Of a stretch of DNA of 64,000 nucleotides, positions 9,613 through 52,164 are shown in pieces. A program made the position numbers and the translations under genes. Position 1 is the stretch's first letter. Every line of letters starts with the position of its first letter. The notes under the pieces were generated by a model, which saw only the letters and a list, made by a program, of their open reading frames with translations, searched no databases and was not told the DNA's origin. This stretch comes from Nitrospirales bacterium. Lineage in GTDB: Bacteria; Nitrospirota; Nitrospiria; Nitrospirales; UBA8639. The stretch spans positions 8,474 to 72,473 of the forward strand of contig JAJDBP010000014.1 of NCBI GenBank assembly GCA_029261295.1, given 5' to 3'.

Positions 9613-10140
9613 TTATAAAATATATGATTGAGGACTGAGGCTATGCCCCGAGGGAATATCATTCCAGGCCACTTGTCGGGCCGCGGCAAATTCCGCATAG
9701 GAAATATGATTGCCATTTCCAAAGGGGGCGGTTGGACCCCAATCAGCAAAACCAAAGGGCTCCCCCGTCACCCATGCCCAATCATTACTGGCATTGGTGG
9801 AAGATGAGCCCCCCAACCAAGGTCCTGAGGATATTCGCCCAAGGGGAAAAGGGAATAGACAACAGTTGAAAAAGCTCGTATTGCTTGCAAAAAGACTTTC
9901 GATAAAATTATTTTCGCCTGACGATGTTACCGTGGCTAAATGCCACCCCGGCCCCTTCGCCACAGCAGCGGCTTGAGCATCTTCCCATGTGATGGCATTC
10001 CCTACTAAGACCGCTTCGAAAAGGTGTCCATTTCCACCATCAATAGCCTTCCATTCCACAGGGACGGCATGACTGAGCGAAATGAAAAATGGACATACTA
10101 CCCAGAGCCCAAGCACCAATAATTGTTGAAGTGTTTTCAT
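9613..10140 (-). CDS. Secreted C-type lectin-like domain protein
   Basis: 175-aa ORF starting at ATG, preceded by AAGGAAA. The signal peptide is LLVLGLWVVCPFFISLSHA. CTLD-like landmarks are WEDAQAAAVAKGPGWHLATVTSSGENNFI, GPWLGG, DWAWVTGEPFGFADW and VAWND. Confidence 0.7.
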   Translation of the reverse strand: MKTLQQLLVLGLWVVCPFFISLSHAVPVEWKAIDGGNGHLFEAVLVGNAITWEDAQAAAVAKGPGWHLATVTSSGENNFIESLFASNTSFFNCCLFPFPLGRISSGPWLGGSSSTNASNDWAWVTGEPFGFADWGPTAPFGNGNHISYAEFAAARQVAWNDIPSGHSLSPQSYIL

Positions 10141-35706: not shown

Positions 35707-37455
35707 ATGTTCTTGTTGAAGAAAACCATACTCGTTTTCCTGCTGTGGCTTTCAGCCTGTGGCCTACCCACCCTGATCTGGGCATTGGATACCGCGCCGT
35801 TTGACGTGGATGGGGATTCCGTCACCAATCCCATGACCGATGCGCAAATGATCATGCGCAAAATGATGGGTCTGGATGGGGCTGCCCTTACCGATGGCGT
35901 CGTGAATCCCGCTGGAACGCGCACCGATCCGGATGAAATCAATACCTTCCTTGAAGCCAATCTATTAAGTCCTGAAGACCACTTAACTATTACCGCAGTG
36001 TTTGTCGACGTGAACAATGGGACGCTCACGATCAAAGGAAAAAATTTTGACATCATCAATGTGCCATTAGAAGTCACACTTGAGGAATTAGGAATATTAA
36101 ATGTCGTAGGAGTATCAACCGCCATTGAGGTCGTTGCCGATTTGCCAGCTGGAATTCTTCCTGGAGACTATGTTCTTACCCTTTCAAAAGGTGAAGCTCT
36201 GAGTCAACAAGACTCATTCGATTTGACGATAGGGCAAGGTGCGCAAGGACCTGAAGGCCCGGAAGGACCACCTGGCCCCGAGGGTCCTCCCGGACCGGCG
36301 GGAACATCCAATCTGATCAATATGCGTTGTCCACCCGGACAGGTCATTTATGGATTTGACCAAATAGGTGGAATTTTATGTGCAGATGCCGCAATCGGTG
36401 CGCCAACGCTTCCACCAATCGCCAACCTTTTACCGGGCGACTTGATCATCACTGAGATTATGGCTAATCCTTCCGGCATCAATGCCGAACGAGAGTGGTT
36501 TGAAATACATAATGTCTCTGGCAAGAATTTTGACCTCAATGGAATGGAAATTCTTATCAATGGCACCAATGCGTTGACCCTGACTTCCGCAGTTTCTCTC
36601 CCTTCAGGAGGCTTTCTCGTCATTGGCCGGAACCAGGACCCTCAGGTGAATGGGGGCCTGGCTGTGGATGTCGTCATAGCGGCCACACTTTCCAATACAG
36701 ATAGTTCGATTGAATTACGGAACGGATCTGCCTTAATCGATCAGGTTACGTATACCACGCCAACCTGGCCTATTATTTCTGGTCGAGCCTTACAATTTTC
36801 TGGCACCACCGCCACTGAAAACGATGATGTGGGTTTTTGGTGCGTGGCCTTTGATGTTTATGGAGACGGGGACTTCGGAACACCTGGTGTCACAAACCCT
36901 ACATGCCCAGATATCTCCATTTCCAACCTCTTACCAGGCGACTTGGTCATCACCGAAATAATGGTCAATCCTTCAGGATCGGATAACGGGCGAGAATGGT
37001 TTGAAATACAGAATGTTTCTGGAAAAAGTTTTGACTTGCAAGGGCTGGAAATTCTCATCAACGACAACAATGCGTTGACCATCCCCTCCTCCGCGTTCAT
37101 TCCTTCAGGAGGATTTCTGGTGTTTGGTCAAAGTCAGGATGTCAACGTCAATGGAGGCCTACTGGTCAATTTCCTCTTCACAGCACCACTACCCAATACA
37201 GGCGGATCGATCGAACTCCTCAACGGATTGATTTCCGTGGATCGTGTGGCCTATTCATCCGGCTGGCCCCTTGTAGTAGGAAGCGCCATGAGTTTCGGTG
37301 GAAACGATGCCACACAAAATGATAATGCGGCCTTTTGGTGCGCGGCAACAATGACATATGGCGATGGAGATTTGGGGACACCCGGCAGTCTCAATCCTCT
37401 TTGCAGTCAATCCCTCCTAAATTCTCAAGAGGGCAAACGAAAAAGATTGCGGTGA
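35707..37455 (+). CDS. Collagen-stalk exported protein, head type A. Domain order is signal peptide, single dockerin-like repeat, IPT-like beta domain, short collagen triple helix, 2x lamin-tail domains (LTD), and a basic tail.
   Basis: 582 aa starting at ATG, preceded by GGGAGG. The dockerin-like repeat is [54 protein letters not shown]. The IPT-like segment is LTITAVFVDVNNGTLTIKGKNF. The collagen tract is [24 protein letters not shown]. The LTD motifs are LPGDLIITEIMANPSGINAEREWFEIHNVSGKNFDLNGMEI and LPGDLVITEIMVNPSGSDNGREWFEIQNVSGKSFDLQGLEI. The protein ends EGKRKRLR. Confidence 0.85.
   Translation: MFLLKKTILVFLLWLSACGLPTLIWALDTAPFDVDGDSVTNPMTDAQMIMRKMMGLDGAALTDGVVNPAGTRTDPDEINTFLEANLLSPEDHLTITAVFVDVNNGTLTIKGKNFDIINVPLEVTLEELGILNVVGVSTAIEVVADLPAGILPGDYVLTLSKGEALSQQDSFDLTIGQGAQGPEGPEGPPGPEGPPGPAGTSNLINMRCPPGQVIYGFDQIGGILCADAAIGAPTLPPIANLLPGDLIITEIMANPSGINAEREWFEIHNVSGKNFDLNGMEILINGTNALTLTSAVSLPSGGFLVIGRNQDPQVNGGLAVDVVIAATLSNTDSSIELRNGSALIDQVTYTTPTWPIISGRALQFSGTTATENDDVGFWCVAFDVYGDGDFGTPGVTNPTCPDISISNLLPGDLVITEIMVNPSGSDNGREWFEIQNVSGKSFDLQGLEILINDNNALTIPSSAFIPSGGFLVFGQSQDVNVNGGLLVNFLFTAPLPNTGGSIELLNGLISVDRVAYSSGWPLVVGSAMSFGGNDATQNDNAAFWCAATMTYGDGDLGTPGSLNPLCSQSLLNSQEGKRKRLR
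36232..36303 (+). repeat. Collagen-like G-X-Y tract (8 triplets)
   Basis: The sequence ggg caa ggt gcg caa gga cct gaa ggc ccg gaa gga cca cct ggc ccc gag ggt cct ccc gga ccg gcg gga translates to [24 protein letters not shown]. Confidence 0.9.
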
Positions 37456-37567: not shown

Positions 37568-38698
37568 ATGAAAGGCAATTATCTGTTGAGCAGACTTTTA
37601 TACCTATGGCTTTTGCTTTTACCCATCCCCTCCTTGACCTGGGCGCTGGATACGGCGCTCTTTGACGTCGATGGGGATTCGGTTGCCAATCCCATGACCG
37701 ATGGGAATCTGATCATGCGAAAAATGTTAGGGCTAGAAGGAACCGCCCTCACCGATGGCGTGGTGAATCCTGCCGGTTTACGTACCGAAGAGGATGAAAT
37801 TAATGCCTTTTTGGAAGCCAGCATGTTGGCCCCGGCGGATCACTTAACGATTACCGAAGTGTTGGTGGACCTAGAGGCAGGAACGCTAACCATCACCGGC
37901 CAAAATTTCCCCATGGGAACCGACCCGATTGTCTTGCTCGGAAATGATACCGTCCCTCTCGGTCTAAGCGGTGTCCCAATGGAAATGGAAATTATTGCAT
38001 TTTTACCGACGCCGGTCATCAATGGGGACTACCTGCTGACCGTTTCGAAAGGTGACGCCCCATCCGAGCGAGATTCATACAACATTACGATTGGTCAAAG
38101 TCCACCTGGCCCCGAAGGGCCAGAAGGTCCTCAGGGGCCGCAAGGATTTCCCGGGGTCCAAGGACTACAAGGACCGGAAGGAGCACAAGGACCTCCAGGC
38201 CCAGCCGCAGATGGCTCCGTACCAATTGACGAATCAGATGCACCTACCGAAGAAATGATTTTTATGAATATTGATGATGGTGCAATTAAGGGAAACGCAA
38301 TCACTTCCGGATATGAAGAGCAAATCGTGGTGGGCTATGTCATGTATGGTGTCGCTCAGGCTGGAGAATGGGAAGAGGGAGAACAAATCACCGGAAGAAT
38401 CACCACCTTTGGCGAATTTCAGATTGTAAAAAATGTCCAAATTGGGAACGGGACTCCAGAATTATTATTCGCCTCCGCAAATAAAACCCAATTCGACAAA
38501 GTTGAGATTAACTTTGTGACGGGAAATGATGCCTATGCGACCATTTCTCTTGAAAAAGTTATCATTACAAGTGACACCGTAAAATTTGATCAGGAATTTA
38601 CCTTGCCAATTGAAATTGTCAGCCTATCGTATCGGAAAGCCACCTGGCGTGTTGGAACAGCAACCACTTCCTATAATCTTGAGGCCGCTACCGACTAA
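37568..38698 (+). CDS. Collagen-stalk exported protein, head type B. It has the same N-terminal module as 35707..37455, a longer collagen helix, and a C-terminal Hcp-like (T6SS tube-protein-fold-like) domain.
   Basis: 376 aa with the signal peptide LLYLWLLLLPIPSLTWA. The dockerin-like repeat is [53 protein letters not shown]. The IPT-like segment is LTITEVLVDLEAGTLTITGQNF. The collagen tract is GPEGPEGPQGPQGFPGVQGLQGPEGAQGPPG. The C-terminal domain is IFMNIDDGAIKGNAITSGYEEQIVVGYVMYGVAQ...GRITTFGEFQIVKNVQIGNGTPELLFASANKTQFDKVEINFV...ISLEKVIITS...PIEIVSLSYRKATWRV. It follows the Hcp1 pattern I.G......H...I.V.s.s.g..q ... dl.f.K..D..sP.L ... v.l.f ... L..v.i.s ... E.v.L.y.k. Confidence 0.7.
   Translation: MKGNYLLSRLLYLWLLLLPIPSLTWALDTALFDVDGDSVANPMTDGNLIMRKMLGLEGTALTDGVVNPAGLRTEEDEINAFLEASMLAPADHLTITEVLVDLEAGTLTITGQNFPMGTDPIVLLGNDTVPLGLSGVPMEMEIIAFLPTPVINGDYLLTVSKGDAPSERDSYNITIGQSPPGPEGPEGPQGPQGFPGVQGLQGPEGAQGPPGPAADGSVPIDESDAPTEEMIFMNIDDGAIKGNAITSGYEEQIVVGYVMYGVAQAGEWEEGEQITGRITTFGEFQIVKNVQIGNGTPELLFASANKTQFDKVEINFVTGNDAYATISLEKVIITSDTVKFDQEFTLPIEIVSLSYRKATWRVGTATTSYNLEAATD
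38108..38200 (+). repeat. Collagen-like G-X-Y tract (about 10 triplets)
   Basis: Translates to GPEGPEGPQGPQGFPGVQGLQGPEGAQGPPG. Confidence 0.9.
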
Positions 38699-38775: not shown

Positions 38776-39444
38776 ATGAAACATACATTTATTCAACAGG
38801 TCATCATCAGCACTTTGCTGTTTTGGAGTGGATTGTATCCCTCGTTTGCCGCCCCATCACCACAAAATATCTTGATAAATATTGGAGAGGGTGCCATTCC
38901 TGGAAATGCAACCGTACCAGGATATGAAAATCAAATCGTCGCCCAAAACTTCTCTTTTGCTGTCTCTCAACTTGGCGAATGGGAAGAGGGAGAACAAATC
39001 ACCGGGAGAGTGACCATTTTTTCGGACTTCACCTTTAGCAAAGAGCTGGACGGTGGAAGCCCAGCTCTTGCTCATGCATCAGCGTTAAAAACGCAATATA
39101 ATAACGCTGTTCTCACCTTTCTCGATACGACGGGAGAACCAATTATCACCGTCACCTTAGAAAAAGTCATTGTCACTAGTGTGGGAATAAAAATGAAACC
39201 AGGTGCAACGAGACCTCTTGAAGTCGTAACATTATCCCATCGCAAGGATACTTGGGAGAGTGGTCAGTCATCTACTTCCTATGACCTTGAAGCGGCATCC
39301 GCGCTAACCGGTGAAATCAGTTCCGCATTAACCGCTCCTACCGGGAGTTCCGCCTTGCTGGATTCCACCACCGAAACCAGCTCCACCGATTCGAACCCTC
39401 TCAGGCAACCTAACAAACGAACCAAAAGAACGAGGACACGATGA
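38776..39444 (+). CDS. Sec-signal-bearing stand-alone Hcp-like domain protein with an S/T-rich linker and a polybasic C-terminal tail
   Basis: 222 aa with the signal peptide VIISTLLFWSGLYPSFA. The domain is ILINIGEGAIPGNATVPGYENQIVAQNFSFAVSQLGEWEEGEQITGRVTIFSDFTFSKELDGGSPALAHASALKTQYNNAVLTFLD...VTLEKVIVTS...PLEVVTLSHRKDTWES. It is paralogous to the C-domain of 37568..38698 and shares GEWEEGEQITGR. The tail is TSSTDSNPLRQPNKRTKRTRTR. Confidence 0.7.
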   Translation: MKHTFIQQVIISTLLFWSGLYPSFAAPSPQNILINIGEGAIPGNATVPGYENQIVAQNFSFAVSQLGEWEEGEQITGRVTIFSDFTFSKELDGGSPALAHASALKTQYNNAVLTFLDTTGEPIITVTLEKVIVTSVGIKMKPGATRPLEVVTLSHRKDTWESGQSSTSYDLEAASALTGEISSALTAPTGSSALLDSTTETSSTDSNPLRQPNKRTKRTRTR

Positions 39445-40950: not shown

Positions 40951-43119
40951 CTATCGTAGCGAACGCTTCCTTTCCCTTTTCTGTCGTTTAGCATGCCCTT
41001 TTTTCTTTCCACGCTGAGTTGGAGGATCTTGAATTTCCGGCTCAGACGTGATGGTAAGCTCTAAACTGTCAGTCAGCGCGGAATCCGGGGATGCAAGATC
41101 TACGGAGGTGCTCACCGCCTCACTCGTGCCGGCCGTTGTCAGCCGACTTCCGGTCGACTCAGCCCCAGGCAGAAACCCACTCAGAAATGCCACAATTGCG
41201 GAGGCCGTGGTCCGCGTCGCACCCACCCCCAGCCCATTGGCCAAGACACTGTCGCTCGTGATGCCAAACAAAAACGCGGTGATAATCTTGCAATCAAACG
41301 TATCTGCCGTGCCATTCCCATCGGCATCCAGCATGCCCAGCGGCTCCACCCCCAGGAGATACGTCATAATCAGTTGCGGGTCGGTGCGCCCGCCGGTAGA
41401 GTCCACCACCCCGGCTGCCACATCCGCTGGATCGGTAATCGCCGGATCCAGATACCGGCAGATCATCGAGCCATCCCACACATTGGTTTCGCTATTAATA
41501 TCAATATCAAAAGTCATCCGTTGGAATGTTTGTTGGGAAACGGGATGAATGGGGTTCAAGGCGAGGTCAAGAACATTGTTTACGGTCAGGGTGTAGCTCA
41601 CTCCTTCAGCAAGAGGAGTTGTGGCAAGAAGGACCGTCACGCCATCAGATTGAAGAGCTGCCTGAAGGATGGATATTCCAGGATCTATAGAGAAGTTACT
41701 GGCGGTCTCAGCACTGCCTCTCTCCAATGGTTCGCTAAAAGTCACGGACACGAGGGTTGGATTACCGGCAGCCATCACATCCAAGATCGTTGGCCCAGAA
41801 ACATCTGATCCTGTGGGAACCAATTTCAGCACTTCCCCTGTTTGCCGCCCGATATACAGCTCTCTGTCTTCATCCTCGCCCCAGGTGATATCGCGTTGGG
41901 GAATAAGCTGCGCACCCGTCGGTTCGATAGCAATCAATTCCAGCTCCCCCGTATTGATATCCATCGCCACCAATTCGGCTGCCACAAAATCAAAGAAAAT
42001 ATATTTACCAAATAATGGTGGCAGCGCTGACCCTCGATACACAAAGCCGCCTATCACAGACCCGAACGCCTTGGTGGTACCATTGTGATCATATTCCGCT
42101 AACGGTGGGGTGAACGCTGGATTAGGTGAAGGATCAACTGTCGCATTCCCACTCACTGGGTCCCAAAGAAAACTCCCCTCCTTCAGATTCCATCCATAGT
42201 TTTTTCCCAACTCTAGGCGCAAAATGGATTCAATCGTGAAATCTCCATTCGTGCCCGTGTACATATCTCCCGTCAGACGATCAGAGGAAATACGCCAAGG
42301 ATTACGAACACCCCAAGCAAATATTTCCGGCACATTTCCGCCTGCTCCATCCGCGAAAGGATTATCAAACGGAATCGTATAACGACCATTGGGTCCAATA
42401 GTATCGACATCGATGCGGAGAATACTTCCATAAGGATTCGTCGTTTGTTGGCCAGTCGTGTGATGAGGAGTCGGCGTGCCAAATGGCGTCGCGCCGCCAT
42501 CGCCAAATGACACATACAAATAACCATCACCGCCAAACGCCAAATCATTCATATTATGTCCGCCGTTAGGCTGGTGCACACGCAGCAATTCTCGTTGAGA
42601 ATCTTGGTCAAACTGGTCAGGATTTGTCGCGTCGACTTGAAATTCAAACAACACGTTATCAAATGCAGAAGACGTATCATCTTGGGGAGGGCTGTAGTCT
42701 GGCGTAGCCCCGTTTGGAACGGCTTCGCCGGAAATCACGTAGAGTTTGCCATTAGTGGCGTAATCTGGATGAAAGGCCATGCCCGACATCGCAAACCCTG
42801 AAGGGGCTGCTGGAATATTCAGGAAGGGTGAGGGACGCAGTGCGCCGTCTTTGAATATACGAATGATCCCGTTTGGCGAGACAAGAAAAAGTCGTCCGCT
42901 CCCATCCCCTGCATTCGTAATATCGAATACCGCACTGGGGTTAACGGACACCACCTGTTCCAATTTGATGGTGTGAGGTCCAAGCGGAATATCGGGCAGT
43001 AGATTGTTTCCATCCCCGACCGCTCTGGCTGACACCGGAGCCAGGCTCACTATCAAGCCAATAACAACCAGCAAGAATTTCAGGGATGAGGTATAGAATG
43101 GCATAGCTATCTTCTTCAA
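40951..43119 (-). CDS. Exported PQQ-dependent sugar dehydrogenase-like beta-propeller with an SbsA-Ig-like domain, a dockerin-like pair and a polybasic tail
   Basis: 722 aa. GSDH landmarks are GDGSGRLFLVSPNGIIRIFKDG, MSGMAFHPDYATNGKLYV, HNMNDLAFGGDGYLYVSFGDGG, YGSILRIDVD, YTIPFDNPF, EIFAWGVRNPWRISSDRLTGDMY and KNYGWN. The Ig-like segment is TLVSVTFSEPLERGSAETASNFSI. The dockerin-like pair is FDIDINSETNVWDGSMICRYL and LDADGNGTADTFDCKIITAFLFGI. The protein ends QRGKKKGHAKRQKRERKRSLR. The start is TTG 43119 or ATG 43104. Confidence 0.85.
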   Translation of the reverse strand: MKKIAMPFYTSSLKFLLVVIGLIVSLAPVSARAVGDGNNLLPDIPLGPHTIKLEQVVSVNPSAVFDITNAGDGSGRLFLVSPNGIIRIFKDGALRPSPFLNIPAAPSGFAMSGMAFHPDYATNGKLYVISGEAVPNGATPDYSPPQDDTSSAFDNVLFEFQVDATNPDQFDQDSQRELLRVHQPNGGHNMNDLAFGGDGYLYVSFGDGGATPFGTPTPHHTTGQQTTNPYGSILRIDVDTIGPNGRYTIPFDNPFADGAGGNVPEIFAWGVRNPWRISSDRLTGDMYTGTNGDFTIESILRLELGKNYGWNLKEGSFLWDPVSGNATVDPSPNPAFTPPLAEYDHNGTTKAFGSVIGGFVYRGSALPPLFGKYIFFDFVAAELVAMDINTGELELIAIEPTGAQLIPQRDITWGEDEDRELYIGRQTGEVLKLVPTGSDVSGPTILDVMAAGNPTLVSVTFSEPLERGSAETASNFSIDPGISILQAALQSDGVTVLLATTPLAEGVSYTLTVNNVLDLALNPIHPVSQQTFQRMTFDIDINSETNVWDGSMICRYLDPAITDPADVAAGVVDSTGGRTDPQLIMTYLLGVEPLGMLDADGNGTADTFDCKIITAFLFGITSDSVLANGLGVGATRTTASAIVAFLSGFLPGAESTGSRLTTAGTSEAVSTSVDLASPDSALTDSLELTITSEPEIQDPPTQRGKKKGHAKRQKRERKRSLR
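41165..41517 (-). repeat. Copy A of a ~350-bp near-duplicated C-terminal dockerin-like module (partner at 43440..43785)
   Basis: The protein segment FDIDINSETNVWDGSMICRYLDPAITDPADVAAGVVDSTGGRTDPQLIMTYL...GMLDADGNGTADTFDCKIITAFLFGITSDSVLANGLGVGATRTTASAIVAFLSGFLPG matches the neighbouring gene. There are long identical DNA runs, for example aatcttgcaatcaaa and gtgccattcccatcggcatccagcatgcc versus gtgccattgccatcggcatcaagcatgcc. Confidence 0.8.
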
Positions 43120-43214: not shown

Positions 43215-44363
43215 TTAACGGCGTCTCGTTTGTGTTCGCTTGCTTCGTTTATGACGACTCTTCTTCTTTGCACTCGACGGCTTCGTGACCTTTACTGGCT
43301 CGATCGTCTGGCTGATTAGAGGCTGCTCCAGCACAATCGAAGCTGTCGTTTCCGACGTAAGGGCGGAAGCCAGCGATTGAACATTCGAGGGAGTTGAGAC
43401 GGTCACTGCTTCCGGCGTACTCACCGCCCCACCCATGCCTGGCAGAAAATCCCTGAGAAAAGCCAGTAACGCATCAGCCGTTGTGCGAGTGGCACCCGAT
43501 CCCAGCCCATTGGCAAATAAACTATCACTCGTGATGCCAAACAAAAATGCCGTAATAATCTTGCAATCAAAATGATCCGATGTGCCATTGCCATCGGCAT
43601 CAAGCATGCCCCGCGCCTCTGCCACCGACAAGTATTCGGTAATTTTTTTGGGGTCCGGACGGCCGCCAGAAGGATCGACGAGCCCTGCTCCTACTTGTTC
43701 CGAATCCGTGATGGCAGGGTCCAGATATCGACAAATCATGGACCCATCCCACACATTCCCCTCGCCATTTAAATCAAGATCCCAGGATAGCACCAAGGGC
43801 CGCCATGCTGTTTCCACGCCATAGCTAATAGACCCGGATTGGTTTCGAAAACTGATCCAGCCCGTGTTCTCACTCCAAGCCCGACCATTAAAATCTCCGG
43901 TGGCGGGATCAATGGTCACCCCATAGTTTTTTGTCGAGCAAGCGTTGGTATTGCTGCAGGAAAAACTAATCCAACCGACGTTTTCACTCCAGGCATAACC
44001 AGCAAGATTTCCTGCCCCATCATTGGTTACGCGATAGTCCCGAGATAGACACGTGCGATTATTCAAACACGACAAACTCACCCAACCCGTGTTCTCGGAC
44101 CAGAGATAGCCGGACACCCCATCATCTTCCACAAACATGCCCGGGCCGCCATCGCCGCCCGGTTCGGCATTCAGCCAACCGGTGTTTTCACTCCAGGCAT
44201 ATTGCGCCCCACTATCATCCGGATCAATATTGTCACTGGCCAGCGCCAGAGAACCTGACAGGCCCAGTACCAAAACTGCACTAAGCACCACCTGAATCCC
44301 ACATTGTTTTGAATGAGTCATGATGCCCTCCGTCTTATCAAACGATTTTTGTTCACTCCACAT
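43215..44363 (-). CDS. Exported protein with 4x W-S-E-N-x-G-W repeats, a dockerin-like pair and a polybasic tail
   Basis: 382-aa ORF. The probable start is ATG 44321, preceded by ACGGAGGG. The signal peptide is VVLSAVLVLGLSGSLALA. The repeats are YAWSENTGWLNA, YLWSENTGWVSLSC, YAWSENVGWISFSC and RAWSENTGWISF. The dockerin-like pair is WDLDLNGEGNVWDGSMICRYL and LDADGNGTSDHFDCKIITAFLFGI. The protein ends SSAKKKSRHKRSKRTQTRRR. Confidence 0.8.
   Translation of the reverse strand: MWSEQKSFDKTEGIMTHSKQCGIQVVLSAVLVLGLSGSLALASDNIDPDDSGAQYAWSENTGWLNAEPGGDGGPGMFVEDDGVSGYLWSENTGWVSLSCLNNRTCLSRDYRVTNDGAGNLAGYAWSENVGWISFSCSNTNACSTKNYGVTIDPATGDFNGRAWSENTGWISFRNQSGSISYGVETAWRPLVLSWDLDLNGEGNVWDGSMICRYLDPAITDSEQVGAGLVDPSGGRPDPKKITEYLSVAEARGMLDADGNGTSDHFDCKIITAFLFGITSDSLFANGLGSGATRTTADALLAFLRDFLPGMGGAVSTPEAVTVSTPSNVQSLASALTSETTASIVLEQPLISQTIEPVKVTKPSSAKKKSRHKRSKRTQTRRR
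43440..43785 (-). repeat. Copy B of the near-duplicated C-terminal dockerin-like module (partner at 41165..41517)
   Basis: See copy A. By eye the two copies are about 75-85% identical at the protein level over ~115 aa, whereas the N-terminal parts of the two genes are unrelated. Confidence 0.8.
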
Positions 44364-44398: not shown

Positions 44399-44989
44399 TC
44401 AATATTCCGTCATTGGCCCTCCACCACGGACACACCAGGTTAATGCCTCGGAGCTAACCTGGAATATCGCAACACCAGGGTTGAATATCACGAGCCGATG
44501 AAGCCCCGAAGCCCTGTGAGAGGTCGCTGACCAATAGCTGCTCAGTTGAATATTGATAAATGGATGTTCAGGGGGCAACAGCGGTCCAGGCACTCCGGCG
44601 GAGGGATCTACCAGACTCAGAGCTTCATGTATGCTCGGCAACCGCCAACCTTTCCGCCCCCCTATCGACACATTGAGGCAGTGAGTCAGAGCACTTTCTA
44701 CAGTTCTTTCAGTGGAATCCGGCCTCCGTTGCCACACCAAGCCAGTCTCTATGTCCAAGACTCCGAGATTTCCCATCACTAACTTGAAGCGCTCATCGGC
44801 CGGCAACTTTTGATCCCACGACGGCTGTGTTTGCGTCGTGGCCGTTGGCTCGCCACTGCCATTCACCGCCGAGCCCGGAGGCTCCAAATCGCCGCTTTGC
44901 GCCTGCGCCGTGCTGATCCCGACTCCAAGCCCTATCATGACACTCAACAACATCTGCAGTCCGATATGTTTTGGTGTTAGCTTCATCAT
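44399..44989 (-). CDS. Secreted DUF1566 (Lcl C-terminal-type, lectin-like fold) protein, paralog 1 of 7
   Basis: 196 aa starting at ATGATG, preceded by AAGGAG, with a signal peptide. The conserved leader is GDLEPPGSAVNGSGEPTATTQTQPSWDQKLPADERF. DUF1566 landmarks are TGLVWQRRP, GGRKGWRLPSIHEALSL, HPFINIQ, YWSAT and WCVRGGGP. Confidence 0.85.
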   Translation of the reverse strand: MMKLTPKHIGLQMLLSVMIGLGVGISTAQAQSGDLEPPGSAVNGSGEPTATTQTQPSWDQKLPADERFKLVMGNLGVLDIETGLVWQRRPDSTERTVESALTHCLNVSIGGRKGWRLPSIHEALSLVDPSAGVPGPLLPPEHPFINIQLSSYWSATSHRASGLHRLVIFNPGVAIFQVSSEALTWCVRGGGPMTEY

Positions 44990-45079
44990 GTCTCCTTTCT
45001 TTTTTTATGACGAGAAGGATTTTCTCCACACTCACGTCCCTCACGCCTCACGTTTGCCCCACCACTCCTTACGGCTTGT

Positions 45080-45760
45080 TCAATATTCTGACAACCCCCC
45101 GCCACCGCGCACACACCAGACCCTACGACTTCGATTTTTGGTGACAGTTTCGATTCTCACAAAACCAGCAGCCGCAGTCCAAGCTTTCTCAGGTTCGTCA
45201 GCAACAGTTGTCGATGACCAATGTTCAATTTCGGCTGGAATGGTAAACGGATGATCACCCGGAATTTGGCCATTAGGAAGGATGAGGCTCTGCAGTTCAA
45301 TGAGTGATGGTAATCGCCAGCCCAGACGGCCACCTGTTCCCCGCAGCGCACAATGTCGGCGAGCATCAACTGGTGCAACTGCACGCGATTCCCAAACATG
45401 CAAAACGGAATCTGGTGTACGTTCCCATACGCGCCCGGTTTCTTTATCCAACACCGCAGCCCCGTTGGGGTGTGCGCCAAATTGACCAGTGGGCCAAATG
45501 CATTTAAACCGAGTGGAATTACACCCATCCACTCCTCCATTATCCGCCCGCAACCACTGATCCCACGAAGGCTGCGTGGGCGTGCTGGCCGTGGGATTGC
45601 CCGATCCGTTGACTGCTGAAGTTGGCGGTTCCAAATTGCCTGCCCCGGTCGCCGCGGGCGGCGGTAACGCCACTTGCGCCTGCGCCACGCTGACGCCAAA
45701 TCCTAGCCCCAGCACAACAGAAAAAATTACTTCCAAACTCACTCGTTGTAAAATAATCAT
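45080..45760 (-). CDS. Secreted DUF1566 protein, paralog 2 of 7
   Basis: 226 aa starting at ATG, preceded by AGAGGGA. Landmarks are GNLEPPTSAVNGSGNPTASTPTQPSWDQ, a Cys-containing insert GGVDGCNSTRFKCIWP, TGRVWERTP, GGRLGWRLPSLIELQSL, WSSTT and VWCVRGGGG. Confidence 0.85.
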   Translation of the reverse strand: MIILQRVSLEVIFSVVLGLGFGVSVAQAQVALPPPAATGAGNLEPPTSAVNGSGNPTASTPTQPSWDQWLRADNGGVDGCNSTRFKCIWPTGQFGAHPNGAAVLDKETGRVWERTPDSVLHVWESRAVAPVDARRHCALRGTGGRLGWRLPSLIELQSLILPNGQIPGDHPFTIPAEIEHWSSTTVADEPEKAWTAAAGFVRIETVTKNRSRRVWCVRGGGGLSEY

Positions 45761-45829
45761 GATTCCCTCTGATTAGGTAAAAAATTTATTGTTCCTGCCA
45801 CACGCGACCTGCTTCCCAATATTTGGACT

Positions 45830-46516
45830 CTACTGAGCAACACCCCCACCTCGGACGCACCAGAAAAAATGATCCTGTGTCTTAGCCAAGGAACCCACGC
45901 CCCCATCGGAGAAATTCACGTACCCAGCAAACAAGTCGGGATTCTCCTCCGGGAGTAAAACAGCGGGGGACGCGGACCAATAGGCAGAATTTTGAATGTT
46001 GCCAAAGGGATGACCAAGTGGAAGCTTCGGACTGCCGGAATGAGTCATATCCAGCAAGCTGGCCAACTCGTAACGAAACGGCAAACGCCAGCCTTTCCTC
46101 CCGGCGACATTGAGGGTTCCGCAATCATGGCCAGAATCCCACCATTCCTGAGCGAGGTCGGAGGGAAATCGTTGCCAGGTCAAGCCCGTGTCTTTATCCA
46201 ACACCGCAGCTCCGTTGGGATGCCCGAATAGCCCGGTGGGCCAAATACATTTAAATCGTGTGGAATTACAGCCATCCACCCCACCATTATTGGCTGGCAG
46301 TTTTTGATCCCAAGAGGGTTGCGTGGGCGTGGTCGCAATGGGATTGCTCGACCCGTTGACGGCCGAGCCCGGCGGCTCCAAATTGCCCGCGCCGGTCGCC
46401 GCCGGCTGGGGGCCTGGCACAATAATAATTTGCGCCTGCACGCTAGCCGCGAATAACCCAACACTCACACTCATAGGGATCAGAATATTGATTATTGATT
46501 TTGGCCAATTGCACAT
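45830..46516 (-). CDS. Secreted DUF1566 protein, paralog 3 of 7
   Basis: 228 aa. Landmarks are GNLEPPGSAVNGSSNPIATTPTQPSWDQKLPA, GGVDGCNSTRFKCIWP, TGLTWQRFP, GRKGWRLPFRYELASLL, HPFGNIQ, YWSAS and FWCVRGGG. Confidence 0.85.
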   Translation of the reverse strand: MCNWPKSIINILIPMSVSVGLFAASVQAQIIIVPGPQPAATGAGNLEPPGSAVNGSSNPIATTPTQPSWDQKLPANNGGVDGCNSTRFKCIWPTGLFGHPNGAAVLDKDTGLTWQRFPSDLAQEWWDSGHDCGTLNVAGRKGWRLPFRYELASLLDMTHSGSPKLPLGHPFGNIQNSAYWSASPAVLLPEENPDLFAGYVNFSDGGVGSLAKTQDHFFWCVRGGGVAQ

Positions 46517-46548
46517 GATTCAACACCCCGTGGTTAGTAAAAAAATGA

Positions 46549-47208
46549 TTAATAATGCGTCAACGGTCCCCCACCGCGCACACACCAAGCCCGTAACGTA
46601 TCAGAACTATTATGACGTTGAAGAAATGTAAGATCTTGAAAATCCATGAGCCAATATCGGGAAGGATCTTGAATATCCTGAGTGGCAGACCAATAAAAAT
46701 TGCCAATGTTTTGAAATGGATGTCCCACTGGAAGGTCGGGATTACCGGTCGGATTGTTGGGGTCCATCAGACTGAGTAACTCGTGAATAGAGGGAAGACG
46801 CCAGCCCAACTGGCCACCGGTTATTCGTCGCAAACAATGCTTGCGAGCACCATAAGGTAGATTAGGATTATTCAGCCCAAAATGACTGCTGGTAGCAGGT
46901 GATTTCTCCCACACGATTCCCGTGTTTTTATCCAATACAGCATCACCGCCCATTACTAACTTGAATCGCTCTGCTGTTGGCAAATCTTGATCCCACGACG
47001 GCTGCGTCTGCGTCGAAGCCGCTGGATTGCCATTCGTATCTACCGCCGTCCCCGGCGGGTCCAAATTGCCACTTTGCCCCTGCGCGAGACTTACACCTAC
47101 ACCGTAAAACACCAAAAGACTGAACAACACCTGCATCCCAAATGGTTTTACAATAATCATGATGCCCCCAAATTTTTTCATTCCATAAGAAACGGACAGT
47201 GATCCCAT
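46549..47208 (-). CDS. Secreted DUF1566 protein, paralog 4 of 7
   Basis: 219-aa ORF. By analogy with its siblings the likely start is ATG 47160 (MIIVKPFGMQVLFSL...), preceded by GGGGG. Landmarks are GNLDPPGTAVDTNGNPAASTQTQPSWDQDLPTAERF, TGIVWEKSP, GGQLGWRLPSIHELLSL, HPFQNI, YWSAT and AWCVRGGGP. Confidence 0.85.
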   Translation of the reverse strand: MGSLSVSYGMKKFGGIMIIVKPFGMQVLFSLLVFYGVGVSLAQGQSGNLDPPGTAVDTNGNPAASTQTQPSWDQDLPTAERFKLVMGGDAVLDKNTGIVWEKSPATSSHFGLNNPNLPYGARKHCLRRITGGQLGWRLPSIHELLSLMDPNNPTGNPDLPVGHPFQNIGNFYWSATQDIQDPSRYWLMDFQDLTFLQRHNSSDTLRAWCVRGGGPLTHY

Positions 47209-47220
47209 ACGTATCGACGT

Positions 47221-47880
47221 TTAATATTCTGACAACGGCCCGCCACCGCGGACACACCAGACAAAGGAGAGGTTCGTCTTCGTAAAGGTACCGACGTTAC
47301 CATTGCCGAAGCCTACGACCCACGCATCCGAGGGCAACGCCGCATTCGTCGTCGCCGACCAATAAAGAGATGTGAATTGAATGTTGTTAAACGGGTGGTT
47401 CACAGGAAGCGCCGGATTGAGTTGATCGGCATCTACCAGGCTCGCCAACTCCTGCATTGACGGAAGCCGCCAGCCTTTCTGTCCGCCGCCTGTGCGGTGG
47501 TTCGCGCATTCTAGTCGCGCAAATGTCCAATTAAGCCTGTCTGCCAGGGTGATACCGAGCACACCATCAGTCTCGCCGGGCGACAGCTCCCAGACCAATC
47601 CAGTATTTTTGTCTAACACACCCCAGTCCTCGATCGCGACGGGACCACCGTCGCCACCGATTATTCTCGTCAGTACTTGAAAGCGTTCATTAGCTGGCAA
47701 GAGCTGATCCCAGGACGGCTGCGTCTGCGTGGTCGGGGTCGGGTCACCGCGCCCATTCACCGCCGTGGACGGTGGCTCTAAACTGCCACTTTGCGCCAAC
47801 ACCACGCTCCCGCCACATCCGTATGCCACCACCACACTCAGCAATAATTGTATCCCCACTCGTTTAGAAGTATTCATCAC
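47221..47880 (-). CDS. Secreted DUF1566 protein, paralog 5 of 7
   Basis: 219 aa. Landmarks are GSLEPPSTAVNGRGDPTPTTQTQPSWDQLLPANERF, TGLVWELSP, GGQKGWRLPSMQELASL, HPFNNIQ, YWSATT and VWCVRGGGP. Confidence 0.85.
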   Translation of the reverse strand: MMNTSKRVGIQLLLSVVVAYGCGGSVVLAQSGSLEPPSTAVNGRGDPTPTTQTQPSWDQLLPANERFQVLTRIIGGDGGPVAIEDWGVLDKNTGLVWELSPGETDGVLGITLADRLNWTFARLECANHRTGGGQKGWRLPSMQELASLVDADQLNPALPVNHPFNNIQFTSLYWSATTNAALPSDAWVVGFGNGNVGTFTKTNLSFVWCVRGGGPLSEY

Positions 47881-47910
47881 GATTGCTCCATCGGCCTAAG
47901 ATTACTCACC

Positions 47911-48546
47911 CTATTTTCCTCGCACACACCAAAACAATTCTTGATTTATCACGGCATTACTCGTGGTACCCGTCCTGCCGGTCTGAAAATCCACTAGTCT
48001 CACACCTATCTGGCTGAACGTCGGATCCAACGTGGCTGTCCAGTACCTCTGGCCTTGAACGTTCAGAAACGGATGGCCAGGAGGGAGCGCAGGCGGACCA
48101 CCTGAGGGGCAGTTATTACAAATATGGTCGGCGTTCACGAGACTCGCTAATTCATGTACTTCCGGAAGTCGCCATCCCAATCTGCCACCCACCTTGCTGC
48201 TAGTACATTGGTTGTACGCAATATTCCATGACATGAAGGAAGCCTGCGGCGTCCGTTCCCATACCAAGCCGGTCTCGCGATCTAGCACACCCCAATCGTC
48301 AAACGCGATGGGGCCCCCACCGCCGCCGAGTATTCTGGTCAACACTTGAAACCGTTCGCTAGTTGGTAAGAGCTGATCCCACGACGGCTGCGTTTGCGTG
48401 GTCGCCAACGGATCGCCACTGCCATTCACCGCCGAAGCCGGCGGCTCCAGATTGCCACTCTGCGCCTGTGCCACACCCACACTCACGCCTAACCCTAGAA
48501 GGAGGCTCAACCACACCTGGAGTTTCAATTGATAAAAACTTGTCAT
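47911..48546 (-). CDS. Secreted DUF1566 protein, paralog 6 of 7
   Basis: 211 aa starting at ATG, preceded by TGAGGG. Landmarks are GNLEPPASAVNGSGDPLATTQTQPSWDQLLPTSERF, TGLVWERTP, GGRLGWRLPEVHELASL, HPFLNVQ, YWTAT and FWCVRGK. Confidence 0.85.
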   Translation of the reverse strand: MTSFYQLKLQVWLSLLLGLGVSVGVAQAQSGNLEPPASAVNGSGDPLATTQTQPSWDQLLPTSERFQVLTRILGGGGGPIAFDDWGVLDRETGLVWERTPQASFMSWNIAYNQCTSSKVGGRLGWRLPEVHELASLVNADHICNNCPSGGPPALPPGHPFLNVQGQRYWTATLDPTFSQIGVRLVDFQTGRTGTTSNAVINQELFWCVRGK

Positions 48547-48624
48547 AATGCCCTCATATAAATAATAAAAAAAAGACTAATTCTTTTACATCCTGCCATC
48601 TCACCGGACATGCTCACTCCATGG

Positions 48625-49290
48625 TTAATGCAGCGTCTGATGCGTATTGCCATCAAAATGCTGACTGCCGCGCACACACCACGGCCGAGGTGATTCGTTT
48701 ATAGAACTCACGGGCAGAACCGCGCCGTTTCGAATATGCACCAGCCACCCGGCATTCGGGATCTCTTCATCCGCGGTGGCCGTCCACAAAAGTGAGGAAT
48801 CTGCACCGCTCGTAATAATATTGATAAAGGGATGACCGGTGGGTAAAGCTGGATTGTTTCCCGTATCAAGCAAACTGGCCAATTGCTCTCGCATCGGCAA
48901 TTGCCAACCTTTACGACCACCAACCTCCCGATTGGCACAATGCGAAATATGGTCTCGCCAACTGCTTGGCAAAGGATTTGTATTGAACGGCGAGCGATCC
49001 CAGACGGCTCCGGTCTCATTATCTCGCACTGCCGTATCGCCCCAAATGCAGGAGAAACGATCTGAATCGCAGCCGACTCGACCTGGTGTCGTGTCGCCAT
49101 TGGTCGAATCCAGTTTTTTATCCCATGAAGGGAATTGGCTTCCCGTGGATCTGGGATTGCCATTGCCGTCAAACGCGGTAACAGGCGGCTCCAAACTCCC
49201 CGCACTGGTTACCCCTGCTGTGCCTATGAACAGCATCAACCCGGTACACCAAAGCATTTTCTGCAACCAATCAATACACTCTTTTTTCAT
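48625..49290 (-). CDS. Secreted DUF1566 protein, paralog 7 of 7 (the most divergent; first gene of the array)
   Basis: 221 aa starting at ATG, preceded by GGAGGG. Landmarks are GSLEPPVTAFDGNGNPRSTGSQFPSWDKKL, VGCDSDRFSCIW, TGAVWDRSP, GGRKGWQLPMREQLASLL, HPFINI, LWTATA and PWCVRGSQ, plus a short extra C-terminal extension. Confidence 0.8.
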   Translation of the reverse strand: MKKECIDWLQKMLWCTGLMLFIGTAGVTSAGSLEPPVTAFDGNGNPRSTGSQFPSWDKKLDSTNGDTTPGRVGCDSDRFSCIWGDTAVRDNETGAVWDRSPFNTNPLPSSWRDHISHCANREVGGRKGWQLPMREQLASLLDTGNNPALPTGHPFINIITSGADSSLLWTATADEEIPNAGWLVHIRNGAVLPVSSINESPRPWCVRGSQHFDGNTHQTLH

Positions 49291-49908
49291 GGCTTGCCCT
49301 CCGCCTTTTTAAAAAGGGGTTAGCATCTTCTCATCCCTGAAGGCGCTAAACCACTAGTTTGTGAGACAATTCAGAAATCCATTCTGGATTGCAGTACTAA
49401 TTCTTTGCCTGTGTTCATTGTTCAAATACTGAAAATAGTTTGGGCCTTTTCTGAAGGCCTCTCATTTCCCCTTACAAAGAACTCCGTTTTACCCACATTT
49501 TTCCCCAACCAAATGACGAACCCTGCCAGCTTGCTGCGGGGTTCTTCATTTCTAATCATACCCAGAAGAGATCCCTTTTTCTATTTTGTCACATCAATCG
49601 CCGTCTGGTCGCCCAAATCATGGAGCTTCGTTCGGAACTGAGGTTTGTGCAACTGCAACAACAATAACTCCGGGACCTCACCGCGCATGTCGTTCGCTTG
49701 AAATCGCAAGTTAGGCATCAGCTAGTTCTAGATGTTCTTGCAATTACTTATCGAGTCATACGCAGGCTGCCCGTTTCAACAGAGGACAGGGTCCATACTC
49801 TGCATTCATTGGAGGGCAGACTCATTATTATTGCTATTTGATGACTTTCCCCCCTGGCTCGATCAATGACAGTCTTCATGGAATTACTCGCTCGCTGCAG
49901 ACCCCGTC

Positions 49909-52164
49909 TTGACTTATTTCATGGCTTTAATAAGGATAGGGGCAGTTGGGGGCACGAATGCTTGGGGCTTTTTGCTCCCCCATCAGGAGACCCGGGATGG
50001 ATACCGTTCCGGGTCTGCCATTTCAAAACGAAATGCCTCATGGTTTCCCATCCCCTCATCAACACCAAGGAGCCACGACATGCTTGTCACACCCAGCCTA
50101 TGCCGTACCCCACGATCTTCTGTTTTCATTCTGATGGGACTCATCTGTTTGCTGCTCACCACCTCACTGGCTTTCGCCAAAAAACCCACGACGGCCACGA
50201 ATGATATTGACGGCGATCGAGTGGTGAATCCCATGACCGATGCGCAAATCATTTCGCGGCATGCGATGGGTCTACGCGGCCAAGCCATGGTAGACGGGGT
50301 GGTCAACCCGGCAGGTACGCGCACCGATCCACAAGAAATTGAAGCTTATCTGGATGCCAATGCCGTGGCTCCTGATGAGTTCCTGACAATTTCGGAAGTG
50401 CTGGTGGATCTGGTTAATAAAACCTTGACGATTACTGGCCGCAATTTTCTGTCGGTCACCGACGCTGAAGTGACACTCGGCACGGATGCCGTGCCCCTGA
50501 GCCTGGCAACCGTACCAACAGATACCGAGATTGTGGCGAACCTTCCGGCAGGACTCGCGGATGGCGATTATTTATTAGCGATGTCTACAGGGGAAGCCCC
50601 CAGTCAGAATGACAGTTATTCCCTCACTATTGGCGAAGGTCCAGTCGGACCGGAAGGTCCTCCCGGCCCCGAAGGGCCACAAGGGATTCAAGGTGGACCG
50701 GGACCGCAAGGTCCAATTGGGCCACAGGGGCCCGAAGGCCCCTTAAACCCTAACGTCTTAACGGAAAGTAATAACACCGCCGTGGGATTCAATACCTTGT
50801 CCAGCAACACGACGGGTAGTTCCAACACCGCGTTCGGAGCAGAGGCCTTGAGTGCGAATACAACGGGTGATGACAACACCGCCCTGGGAAGAAATGCCTT
50901 AGTCGCCAATACCATGGGGACACTCAACACGGCCGTGGGGTCCTCAGCCTTGCGCAAAAACACCACGGGCGGTAACAACACCGCTGTGGGAACCTTCGCC
51001 TTAGGAGTCAATACTACGGCGTTAAACAATACCGCTGTGGGAAAAGAGGCTTTAGGTGCCAACACAACCGGCGGTAACAACACAGCTGTGGGATCTGTTG
51101 CTTTGCGTAACAATACCACCGCCTTTAGCAACACCGCTCTGGGAACCGCGGCCATGAACCTTAACACGACGGGCAGTAACAACACTGCCATTGGAGCATT
51201 TACTTTACTCCTTAATACTTTAGGGGATAGCAACACCGCTCTGGGAACCGCGACCATGAACCTTAACACGACAGGCAGTAGTAATACTGCCATAGGAACA
51301 AGTGCCTTAGCCGCCAACACCACGGGGAATCAGAACCTCGCTGCGGGATCCTCTGCCTTACGCACCAACACCACGGGTGATAGCAACACCGCCATGGGAG
51401 ATCAAGCCCTGCTTTTCAACACCACAGGTCGTATCAACACTGCCGTGGGAGATTCCGCCTTGAGCAGCAACACGACAGGGATCGACAATATTGCGGTTGG
51501 AATTAGTGCCGGAACAAATCAAACGACAGGAAGTCACAATATCTACCTTGGAAATTTTGGCGTTGCCGAAGAGTCAGGACACATGCGTCTTGGTCAACCT
51601 GGCTTCCAATTCCAAACATTTATGGCTGGCATTCGGGGAGTGACAACTGGCGTCAATAATGCAGTTTCGGTCATGATTGATTCCGCTGGACAACTTGGGA
51701 CGGTTTCCTCTTCTCGTCGATACAAAGAAGACATTCAGGATATGGCCGAGGTAAGTGCGCGGATACTCCAATTGCGACCAGTCACGTTTCGCTATAAAAA
51801 GGCCTTTACTAATGAAATAAAGCCCATCCAGTATGGCTTAATCGCTGAAGAGGTGGCGGAGGTCTATCCCGATTTGGTGGTCTATAACGCGAAAGGCCAC
51901 GTCGAAACGGTGCAATATTATAAATTGATCCCACTCATGCTGCATGCCGTGCAACAACAAGAGACACAGTTGCAAGAGGAACACGACACCAATCGCCACC
52001 TGCTCTCGCAACTCCAAGAACAAGCAGAAGAACTGCAAGATCTCCGTTCAGCACTCACATTCGTACAGAAGCAGAATCGCCAACTGCAAGATCTGAGGGC
52101 GCGCCTTGTCAAATTGGAATCGCAACTCGAAACTCGTTCATTCCTGCAAGCGCAATTGCCCTAA
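49909..52164 (+). CDS. Collagen-stalk exported protein, head type C. It has the same N-terminal module, a collagen helix, about 19 copies of a 14-residue tail-fibre/YadA-head-like beta-helix repeat, a peptidase S74 intramolecular-chaperone auto-processing domain, and a coiled coil.
   Basis: The ORF is open from TTG 49909. The probable start is ATG 50080 (AAGGAG at 50066-50071), giving [33 protein letters not shown]. Landmarks:
- Dockerin-like repeat: [53 protein letters not shown].
- IPT-like segment: [22 protein letters not shown].
- Collagen tract: [36 protein letters not shown].
- Head repeats: NTA(V/L/I)G..AL..NTTG...
- S74 motif: [12 protein letters not shown]...LRPVTFRYK...[19 protein letters not shown]...[11 protein letters not shown]. 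Confidence 0.85.
50632..50739 (+). repeat. Collagen-like G-X-Y tract (about 12 triplets)
   Basis: Translates to [36 protein letters not shown]. Confidence 0.9.
50770..51555 (+). repeat. About 19 tandem copies of a 42-bp (14-aa) repeat encoding NTA-x-G-x2-AL-x2-NTTG-x2
   Basis: The translation reads [74 protein letters not shown] and so on. The antisense 211-aa ORF 50688..51323 is a shadow of this periodicity. Confidence 0.9.

Follow-up and report, generated by a model that had tools for sequence, protein, structure and literature searches.

The 64,000-nucleotide window analysed here (the whole stretch from position 8,474 to 72,473 of contig JAJDBP010000014.1, assembly GCA_029261295.1, Nitrospirales bacterium) carries a head-to-tail run of seven paralogous genes for small, putatively secreted proteins with an Lcl_C domain (formerly DUF1566). 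The genes are numbered P1 (44399-44989) to P7 (48625-49290), and all seven are intact open reading frames (ORFs) on the minus strand. We propose that this run is likely to be a cassette-free tandem ("germline") array of orphaned lectin receptors of the kind served by diversity-generating retroelements (DGRs), with P5 as a former or remote target. In intact cassettes of this kind, a reverse transcriptase (RT) copies an AAY-rich template repeat (TR) and overwrites the variable repeat (VR) of the target gene with adenine-specific errors. It is very probable that such mutagenesis shaped the VR of P5 at some time; that P5 is being diversified now seems doubtful to us. Every single ingredient of this scenario is already known from other DGR systems. 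What it provides is a specific mechanism, a DGR-type VR, in place of a vague "hypervariable lectin loop", and a small secreted lectin family that DGRs have repeatedly targeted in anammox bacteria and nitrite-oxidising Nitrospirota, ecologically important groups with few described DGRs. Moreover, the family spans intact, decayed and cassette-free states, and thus would offer a system for studying what becomes of hypermutated receptor genes once their mutator has been lost or has moved away.

The argument is centred on the stretch between the motifs YWSAT and WCVRG, which in P5 (47221-47880, minus strand, 219 aa; GTG start, 218 aa in the database copy; tail WCVRGGGPLSEY) occupies positions 47245-47364 (YWSATT...WCVRG). 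A search with P5 retrieved 677 homologs at E <= 1e-5, mostly from metagenome-assembled genomes of Nitrospirota, and the family as a whole comes mainly from Nitrospirota and anammox bacteria. An earlier note on this DNA had held that the paralogs share almost nothing in this stretch, which is correct for the seven copies, but across 63 homologs the stretch exhibits an invariant scaffold, PTxAWxVxFxxGxVxxxxKxxxxFVWCVRGG. In the numbering of P5, the scaffold residues P183, A186, W187, V189, F191, G194, V196, K201 and V207 alternate with hypervariable positions, whose entropy is 3.0-3.6 bits in these homologs. At the latter positions Asn is the most frequent residue, and K, E, Q, M and W together account for 4.2%, compared to 10.7% at other variable sites. 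In P5 and in homologs from two other genomes the scaffold codons are nearly identical, and the variable codons are almost all of the NNY type. This is the pattern expected of a VR copied from an AAY-rich TR with errors at adenines.

VRs of the DUF1566 type are a recognised class of DGR targets (Wu et al. 2018, PMC5758913). The members of this DUF1566/DUF823/Fib_succ_major class (CLec2, category "d" in that study; e.g. Legionella LdtA) have their Pfam domain in common with the window genes, likewise carry the variable stretch at the C-terminus, and share the scaffold AWxVxFxxGxVxxxxK...V(R/W)CVR, which we found in 15 viral and 45 metagenomic TRs. The scaffold also matches the TR/VR pairs of the loci labelled here L015, L017 and L100-L144 as well as those of the viral loci, with P5 and P2 in the same 30-residue register. 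Short single-domain proteins like those of the window are common among the targets of the class, and genuine targets are found among the close relatives of the window genes. The YWSAT-WCVRG stretch is a homolog of the VR of DUF1566/CLec2-class targets, in which the invariant W, V, F, G, V and K alternate with exposed residues, and the latter make up the ligand-binding surface. There are also differences: the window lacks a TR, Avd and RT, six of the seven copies lack a signature of adenine mutagenesis, and the lipoprotein signal of LdtA is replaced by a plain, putatively Sec-type signal followed by a subfamily-specific segment of 33 residues.

Genuine DGR cassettes occur within the family. A scan of GTDB representative genomes yielded 80 loci, which were then searched with a DNA profile of the VR (nhmmer). 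The profile detected two adenine-rich copies that have no gene body upstream, L015:11609-11729 and L017:5352-5472. In L017 the TR lies 0.9 kb downstream of the gene, and 18 of the 21 differences between the TR and the VR of that gene fall on template adenines, with the other three past the 3' edge of the repeat; in L015 the template continues directly into a truncated RT ORF (a stump of 125 aa). A metagenome scan with a template-type pattern retrieved 45 TRs of the WCVR class; many have a VR partner, and all differences between the two (100%) are adenine-specific (22/22 in L102, 22/22 in L118, 18/18 in L124). L118 is a complete cassette, comprising an Lcl_C target (E 1.2e-24), bAvd (4.5e-11), a TR, and an RT with RVT_1 (2.5e-16) and a C-terminal MutS_I domain. 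L100 contains the 3' end of a target gene (...AWLVGFGDGSVGTNVKSFDVFVWCVRGGGPLSEY and the stop codon), after which come Avd, a TR that encodes YWSATTNVENPTRAWNVNFNNGNVNTNNKTNNNFVWCVR and the beginning of the RT; the tail of its target (...FVWCVRGGGPLSEY at the stop codon) is that of P5. The RT start, ATGATGCCCCCC (ATGATGCC...), follows immediately on the end of the TR in every WCVR-type template.

As to the RTs themselves, the cassette-linked enzyme at L118:2756-4330 carries its C-terminal MutS domain I (PF01624) at E 1.7e-9, and so do nearly all of the best 120 of 7,915 homologs. MutS_I-like extensions are known on some DGR RTs, the motif having been noted weakly, in three RTs, by Wu et al. 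2018 (PMC5758913). The fusion of RT with MutS_I thus seems, from these matches, to be far more widespread than described.

Cassettes in various states of degradation were also encountered. Avd (full or truncated) or RT remnants are present behind the family gene in 10 of the 80 genome loci, and one nearly identical VR, DAWFVYFGRGFVDHDSKTHTGH, written in NNY codons, recurs in many Nitrospira genomes (L033, L034, L035, L036, L043, L048, L054, L057, L058, L080 and others). The latter looks like a DGR product that was fixed and is now conserved across species. On the basis of the remnants and of this fixed VR we conclude that cassette decay leaving fixed targets is common in the family. The decayed cassettes include truncated Avd fragments of 22-105 aa just downstream of the gene in L015, L019, L032, L038, L047, L050, L059, L074 and L078, i.e. 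in Nitrospira, Brocadia and related bacteria.

The connection between the array and these elements comes from the comparison of the paralog VRs with the L100 and L103 metagenomic TRs, which belong to other organisms. P5 aligns to both without gaps and is 85% identical to them at non-adenine positions versus 43% at adenine positions (p=6e-6), an adenine bias resembling that of the DGR-linked homologs. Over 87 nt, P5 has 27 mismatches to the L100 TR (18 at adenines), and the VR of L100 itself likewise has 27 (21 at adenines). Of the 15 hypervariable codons of P5, 12 have the form NNY; codons for K, E, Q, M or W are absent among the 15. Since selection on the same residues could mimic an adenine bias, a synonymous-site test was added, in which third-base identity was determined at codons for the same 4-fold-degenerate amino acid in two homologs. 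Between P5 and outside homologs, the third base agrees at a rate of 0.57 in the VR and tail versus 0.42 in the remaining gene (p=2.6e-4). The excess is seen in P5 only and was not found in the VR of any of the other six copies. P2 exhibits no adenine bias (0.60 at non-adenine versus 0.51 at adenine positions, p=0.24), nor do P4 (p=0.26) and P6 (p=0.45), and P1, P3 and P7 show a weak bias relative to DGR templates, with indels. Given that the VR of P5 looks templated, we suggest that P5 was once a DGR target or else is served remotely by a DGR located elsewhere in the genome.

Because the family possesses genuine DGR cassettes and P5 has a template-like signature, the family-wide hypervariability is at least partly retroelement-driven, beyond duplication and selection. 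The interpretation offered in the earlier note, a hard-wired repertoire of binding specificities, fits the six copies without a hypermutation signature, but it missed the DGR link, and P5 does not conform to it. In its pure form it would imply that the array arose by duplication, that the loops diverged by mutation under diversifying selection with no retroelement in the lineage, and that the likeness of P5 to templates reflects shared ancestry of the scaffold. We consider this unlikely. The template-like synonymous sites and the NNY codons in the VR of P5 are not predicted by selection at the protein level, P5 is as near to the foreign TR of L100 as L100's own VR is, and it shares its tail with a cassette target, even though no TR, Avd or RT lies within 64 kb and six of the seven copies have no template-like signature, as the hard-wired explanation would have it. 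Tandem arrays without cassettes also occur in L001 and L004 (four genes), L008 (three) and L044 from Nitrospira sp. NS4 (five), which again speaks for duplication without a retroelement, but repeated decay of cassettes beside family genes indicates that DGR loss is common in the family. As to the diversifying selection invoked by this explanation, it is untestable on synonymous sites that are saturated among the paralogs.

The existence of DUF1566 paralog families independent of DGRs in other bacteria (Leptospira, Fibrobacter) has likewise to be counted in favour of the hard-wired explanation. Such families, exemplified by Lsa25 in Leptospira and by the "major paralogous domain" of Fibrobacter succinogenes, comprise many secreted or surface paralogs per genome in the absence of a retroelement, and they are dispersed and often lipoproteins. 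In contrast, the window copies are tightly packed into a single tandem run, and DGRs are linked to their nearest relatives. P5 itself shows a weak NCBIfam match to Lsa25 (E 3.5e-5), far under the cut-off.

The 3' ends of the variable stretches were inspected for an initiation of mutagenic homing (IMH) element. The GC-rich 3' end TGGTGTGTCCGCGGTGG... is conserved, and 3' of the VRs no hairpin or cruciform was detected, in that no downstream stretch folds better than its shuffles. A sequence of ~35 nt right after the stop codon is common to the L100 cassette target and the genes of L002 and L008. This post-stop sequence, GTGGCCYG.TGATGCCTTGG.CATTTGAT.ATTTGA, accompanies both a cassette target and array genes without a nearby cassette (L100, both L002 genes, L008) and is missing after the window genes; it folds no better than its shuffles, and it could be a homing cis-element.

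Several observations weigh against the DGR origin that we favour. First, a cognate TR or RT for P5 was not found within the 64-kb window, and the DGR origin of P5 therefore rests on templates from other organisms. Second, nine of the 27 mismatches between P5 and the L100 TR are at non-adenine positions. Third, template adenines coincide with protein-variable positions, so that the adenine bias is partly confounded; the synonymous-site test addresses this objection, yet it is a single test of moderate strength. Fourth, P5 lacks the ~35-nt post-stop sequence of the L100, L002 and L008 genes. Fifth, the identity of two assemblies over 8.6 kb means that no population variation is visible. Of these points, the missing TR, the non-adenine mismatches, the absent post-stop sequence and the identical assemblies also speak against P5 being an active target. 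Finally, a DGR past of the six other copies is conjectural, and they may never have been targets.

The search for DGR components covered the 64-kb window out of a contig of 73,021 bp. No TR was detected in the window by blastn-short with the C-terminal 210 nt of each gene, by a repeat search or by nhmmer with the VR profile; the only matches were the WCVRGG-coding ends of the paralogs. Neither RVT_1 nor bAvd was found by Pfam in the ORFs of at least 150 aa in the window, and six-frame tblastn of the L118 RT and Avd against the window gave no match. With 12-90 bp, the intergenic gaps are too short to contain cassette remnants, and an RT on an array-bearing contig was not seen among the best 120 of 7,915 RT homologs. 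Since the TR and RT that define a DGR locus are both lacking in the window, the array is not filed as one.

Remote and tandem multi-target DGRs are known, with eight tandem targets in Stenotrophomonas, seven remote targets in Treponema and trans targets in Thiohalocapsa PB-PSB1 (PMC5758913, PMC10907252). As in the window, several paralogous C-type-lectin targets occur per genome in these systems, in tandem or far from the RT, and P5 could be such a remote target. One might then imagine an active cassette elsewhere in the genome that acts in trans and diversifies all seven genes or several of them, and DGR loci do assemble poorly, so that such a cassette may have ended up on a small contig outside the bin (most of the RT contigs listed are 1.5-7 kb long). 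We consider this very unlikely for the array. Targets of a multi-target DGR all match one TR and differ at adenines only, whereas the stretches in the window are mutually unalignable at the DNA level: although P1, P2, P4 and P5 have a common 3' end, blastn-short revealed no mutual DNA similarity of the seven stretches beyond the WCVRGG codons. Furthermore, the stretches are ~60% identical at non-adenine positions of the template, and they differ in length (28-35 aa); therefore one template is unable to serve all seven, and a single DGR acting on the whole array is rejected. In addition, the two assemblies are identical, and at most P5 could be a target.

We therefore return to the cassette-free array of orphaned receptors. 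In this interpretation, the array would represent the germline end of a range that extends from the intact cassette via the decayed cassette to none. Its six other copies would have variable stretches diverged by ordinary substitutions and indels, each encoding one fixed putative binding surface. The proteins would be secreted and bind ligands via the variable face, the genes would be transcribed together, and diversity made by a DGR would later have been fixed by duplication. It is tempting to go further and to regard the array as a genomic archive, in which a DGR diversifies a live copy (P5 or its ancestor), and the useful variants are captured by tandem duplication, escape rewriting by losing their homing sequences and build up into a repertoire that is fixed and co-expressed. 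Such an archive would account for the intact-to-decayed relatives, for the template signature in one of the seven copies and for the longest such array found, and if true it would mean that a repertoire encoded in the germline can arise naturally from somatic-style hypermutation. Nonetheless, we regard it as speculative and improbable.

Among 81 loci, a run of seven copies occurs in this window only; a single copy is present in 70 loci, two copies in five, three in L008, four in L001 and L004, and five in L044. The last of these, at L044:7892-11415 of Nitrospira sp. NS4, consists of five tandem Lcl_C paralogs with an N-terminal segment of the type GPYYA.P.WDQ.L, divergent variable stretches and no cassette, and is an independent second cassette-free array.

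The genes of the window array are found at the coordinates at which they had been described, as seven co-oriented ORFs for proteins of 196-228 aa, with gaps from P1 to P7 of 90, 69, 32, 12, 30 and 78 bp. In addition to P5, they are P1 (44399-44989, 196 aa, tail WCVRGGGPMTEY), P2 (45080-45760, 226 aa, tail WCVRGGGGLSEY), P3 (45830-46516, 228 aa, tail WCVRGGGVAQ), P4 (46549-47208, 219 aa, tail WCVRGGGPLTHY), P6 (47911-48546, 211 aa, tail WCVRGK) and P7 (48625-49290, 221 aa, tail WCVRGSQHFDGNTHQTLH), all on the minus strand. P7 is the first gene of the run and the most divergent copy (36% identity to P1). The run is probably co-transcribed, given the short intergenic spacing. Between the seven genes no convincing terminators were recognised, and the promoter/terminator scan is uninformative with respect to operon structure. 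The array is identical in two independent assemblies, the Logan assembly from run SRR15505512 agreeing with the window at 100% identity over 8,582 nt.

The predicted DUF1566 core is borne out by the profile comparison: all seven proteins match PF07603 (Lcl_C) with E-values from 1.6e-14 to 6.4e-24 (1.7e-15 for P1, 6.4e-24 for P5) and scores of 54.7-84.9 bits, above the gathering cut-off of 34.9, and they cover profile positions 2 or 3 to 117 of 117. The alignment of the seven paralogs contains 39 invariant columns, which include WCVRG and a Cys pair. The final motif, reported as an invariant WCVRGG, is invariant in all seven as far as WCVRG, but at the sixth residue five copies have G, whereas P6 has K and P7 has S. 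The longer 3' end WCVRGGGP(L/M)(S/T)(E/H)Y is conserved at the DNA level in P1, P2, P4 and P5. The Cys-containing insert ascribed to three members belongs to P2, P3 and P7. At the N-terminus, a hydrophobic helix (residues 4-23 in the P5 model) followed by AQAQ/S constitutes a putative signal peptide, and the seven proteins are presumably exported through the Sec pathway.

The YWSAT-WCVRG stretch is indeed the most divergent part of the paralogs, with 28-35 residues and a mean pairwise identity of 0.11-0.15 as compared to 0.7-0.8 in the conserved blocks. Still, the variability is not confined to it, as a second segment in the middle of the domain (alignment columns 141-180, from VWERxP to the conserved Cys) is nearly as variable, with identity of 0.02-0.25. 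The proportion of non-synonymous differences (pN) reaches 0.64 in the C-terminal stretch and 0.58 in this mid-domain segment; in the core it is 0.33-0.36. The proposed check for diversifying selection by the ratio of non-synonymous to synonymous rates (dN/dS) was run and is uninformative, because synonymous sites are saturated among the paralogs (proportion of synonymous differences, pS, 0.64-0.76), and dN/dS is therefore unable to test such selection. The VR-homologous segments, all on the minus strand, lie at 44423-44536 in P1 (28 aa from motif to motif; diverged and carrying indels when compared with the templates), 45104-45223 in P2 (30 aa, in the register of DGR-type VRs; it contains E, K and R-ending codons), 45848-45982 in P3 (35 aa, exceeding the 30-residue register of DGR-type VRs), 46573-46695 in P4 (31 aa), 47917-48045 in P6 (33 aa) and 48667-48789 in P7 (31 aa). 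P5, whose segment is gapless against the L100 and L103 templates and in the 30-residue register, is the sole copy with a DGR-type VR.

In the six other copies the family scaffold is lost in places within the variable stretch (e.g. W187 and K201). Together with the high pN of two segments, this might suggest that the array consists of relics of DGR targets drifting to pseudogenes, the variability being merely relaxed constraint. We give this hardly any credence: all seven ORFs are intact and have signal peptides and 39 invariant columns, WCVRG and the Cys pair are kept, pN is 0.24 in the conserved N-terminal segment and 0.33-0.36 in the core despite saturated pS, and each of the seven proteins is above the Pfam threshold over the full domain. 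The intact ORFs, the invariant columns and the low pN in the N-terminal segment and core argue instead that the six copies are likely to be functional.

Each protein is essentially one Lcl_C/DUF1566 domain behind the subfamily-specific segment of 33 residues. The C-type-lectin-like fold attributed to the paralogs agrees with an AlphaFold2 model, calculated for P5 only, as a monomer, from an alignment of 70 sequences (mean predicted local distance difference test score, pLDDT, 86.3). In a Foldseek search of the PDB, the best match of this model is the C-terminal domain of Legionella Lcl (8q4e; E 5.5e-5, TM-score 0.61 normalised to the target), and further matches include the C-terminal domain of Bdellovibrio Bd2740, C-type-lectin-like domains of snake venoms, CD94 and CD23. 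The fold of the paralogs, as modelled, is thus C-type-lectin-like. A PDB search with the sequence profile of the paralogs produced no match at E <= 1, and the Lcl domain was reached by the fold search only.

The C-terminal domain of Lcl from Legionella pneumophila is the namesake of the Pfam family and has a C-type-lectin-like structure that forms the trimeric head of a surface adhesin for glycosaminoglycans (PMC11162425). Lcl forms trimers with an N-terminal helix and a long collagen-like stalk, whereas the window proteins have no such helix, and neither collagen repeats nor a Collagen match was found in any of the seven by Pfam scan and alignment. Identity of the array products as Lcl-type collagen adhesins was therefore rejected, as all seven lack collagen repeats. 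Moreover, the Lcl domain has no disulfides, in contrast to the invariant Cys pair of the window family, and the sequence identity is 20%.

The conserved N-terminal segment, or leader, QSGNLEPPxSAVNGSGNPxATTQTQPSWDQxLP (33 aa), is confirmed as a strongly conserved element, with a mean column identity of 79% and 11 invariant positions. It lies at 47695-47793 in P5, with equivalent segments at 44801-44899 (P1), 45548-45646 (P2), 46295-46393 (P3), 46978-47076 (P4), 48364-48462 (P6) and 49108-49206 (P7), all on the minus strand. Its pN of 0.24 is the lowest non-synonymous divergence of any region except WCVRG. The suggestion that the leader is a common docking or processing element found no support: in an exhaustive profile search of 1.84 billion cluster representatives it matched 52, and the genuine matches always have the architecture signal-leader-Lcl_C, with ~200-250 aa and the segment at residues ~29-61 (one exception of 319 aa has extra N-terminal sequence). 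A word-indexed search with a 41-residue query gave one candidate and is uninformative at that length. Since the architecture is always the same and pN is low, the leader is a strongly constrained, subfamily-specific N-terminal extension rather than a module shared with other proteins. The cassette-linked relatives retain only its end, (P)SWDxxL....RF.

Some long matches to the leader profile that extend over several stretches (P0252, P0272, P0281) are proteins with Flg_new (Listeria-Bacteroides) repeats, which match weakly with the second half of the repeat. The similarity between the Flg_new sequence AVTAPxDPTKTGYTFKGWDKEIP and the leader part AVNGSGNPxATTQTQPSWDQxLP probably reflects a beta-hairpin-like motif in common, or chance.

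Upstream of the array, an intergenic region of 618 bp (49291-49908) separates P7 from a divergently oriented fibre-like gene and presumably contains the promoter of the array. One weak sigma-70-like match was found there on the minus strand (49583-49555), with fewer matches overall than in shuffled sequences. The fibre-like gene (49909-52164, plus strand), given here for context, has the collagen/S74 character described for it, with a TIG domain, a weak Collagen match and Peptidase_S74, and it has no Lcl_C domain. Between its collagen-like tract and Peptidase_S74, at 50795-51501, it includes ~14 tandem 51-nt (17-aa) repeats of the form ...NT(T/A)(V/L)G..AL..NTTG...

On the other side, the next gene on the same strand (43215-44363, minus, 382 aa) begins 35 bp after P1, has no Pfam match and contains four copies of (Y/R)AWSEN(T/V)GW(I/L/V)S; it too is given for context. 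This gene and the one at 40951-43119 (minus strand; GSDH and Big_5 domains) had been described as dockerin-like tagged genes. A common tag exists, in that their C-terminal ~190 nt (a 189-nt repeat, of DxDxNG type and then with a Lys/Arg-rich tail) are 78% identical, but a Pfam dockerin match was found in neither gene.

Further away, the gene at 37568-38698 (plus strand) combines a collagen-like tract (E 4.7e-4, sub-threshold) with an Hcp domain of the type VI secretion system (E 7.4e-17), an unusual architecture for Hcp, and is followed by a second gene with an Hcp domain at 38776-39444 (plus strand, E 4.5e-20). At least four secreted proteins that are otherwise dissimilar, one of them the product of the fibre-like gene, have a conserved N-terminal module in common, DVDGD..NPMTDGxxI (35803-35858, 37664-37719, 50203-50258 and 58678-58733, with an inverted copy at 3987-4041). 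Finally, an ORF of 175 aa at 9613-10140 (minus strand) gives a weak, sub-threshold match to the C-type lectin family PF00059 (E 0.0036) and may encode another lectin-like protein; it is located in a region rich in secreted proteins, among them three PEP-CTERM proteins.

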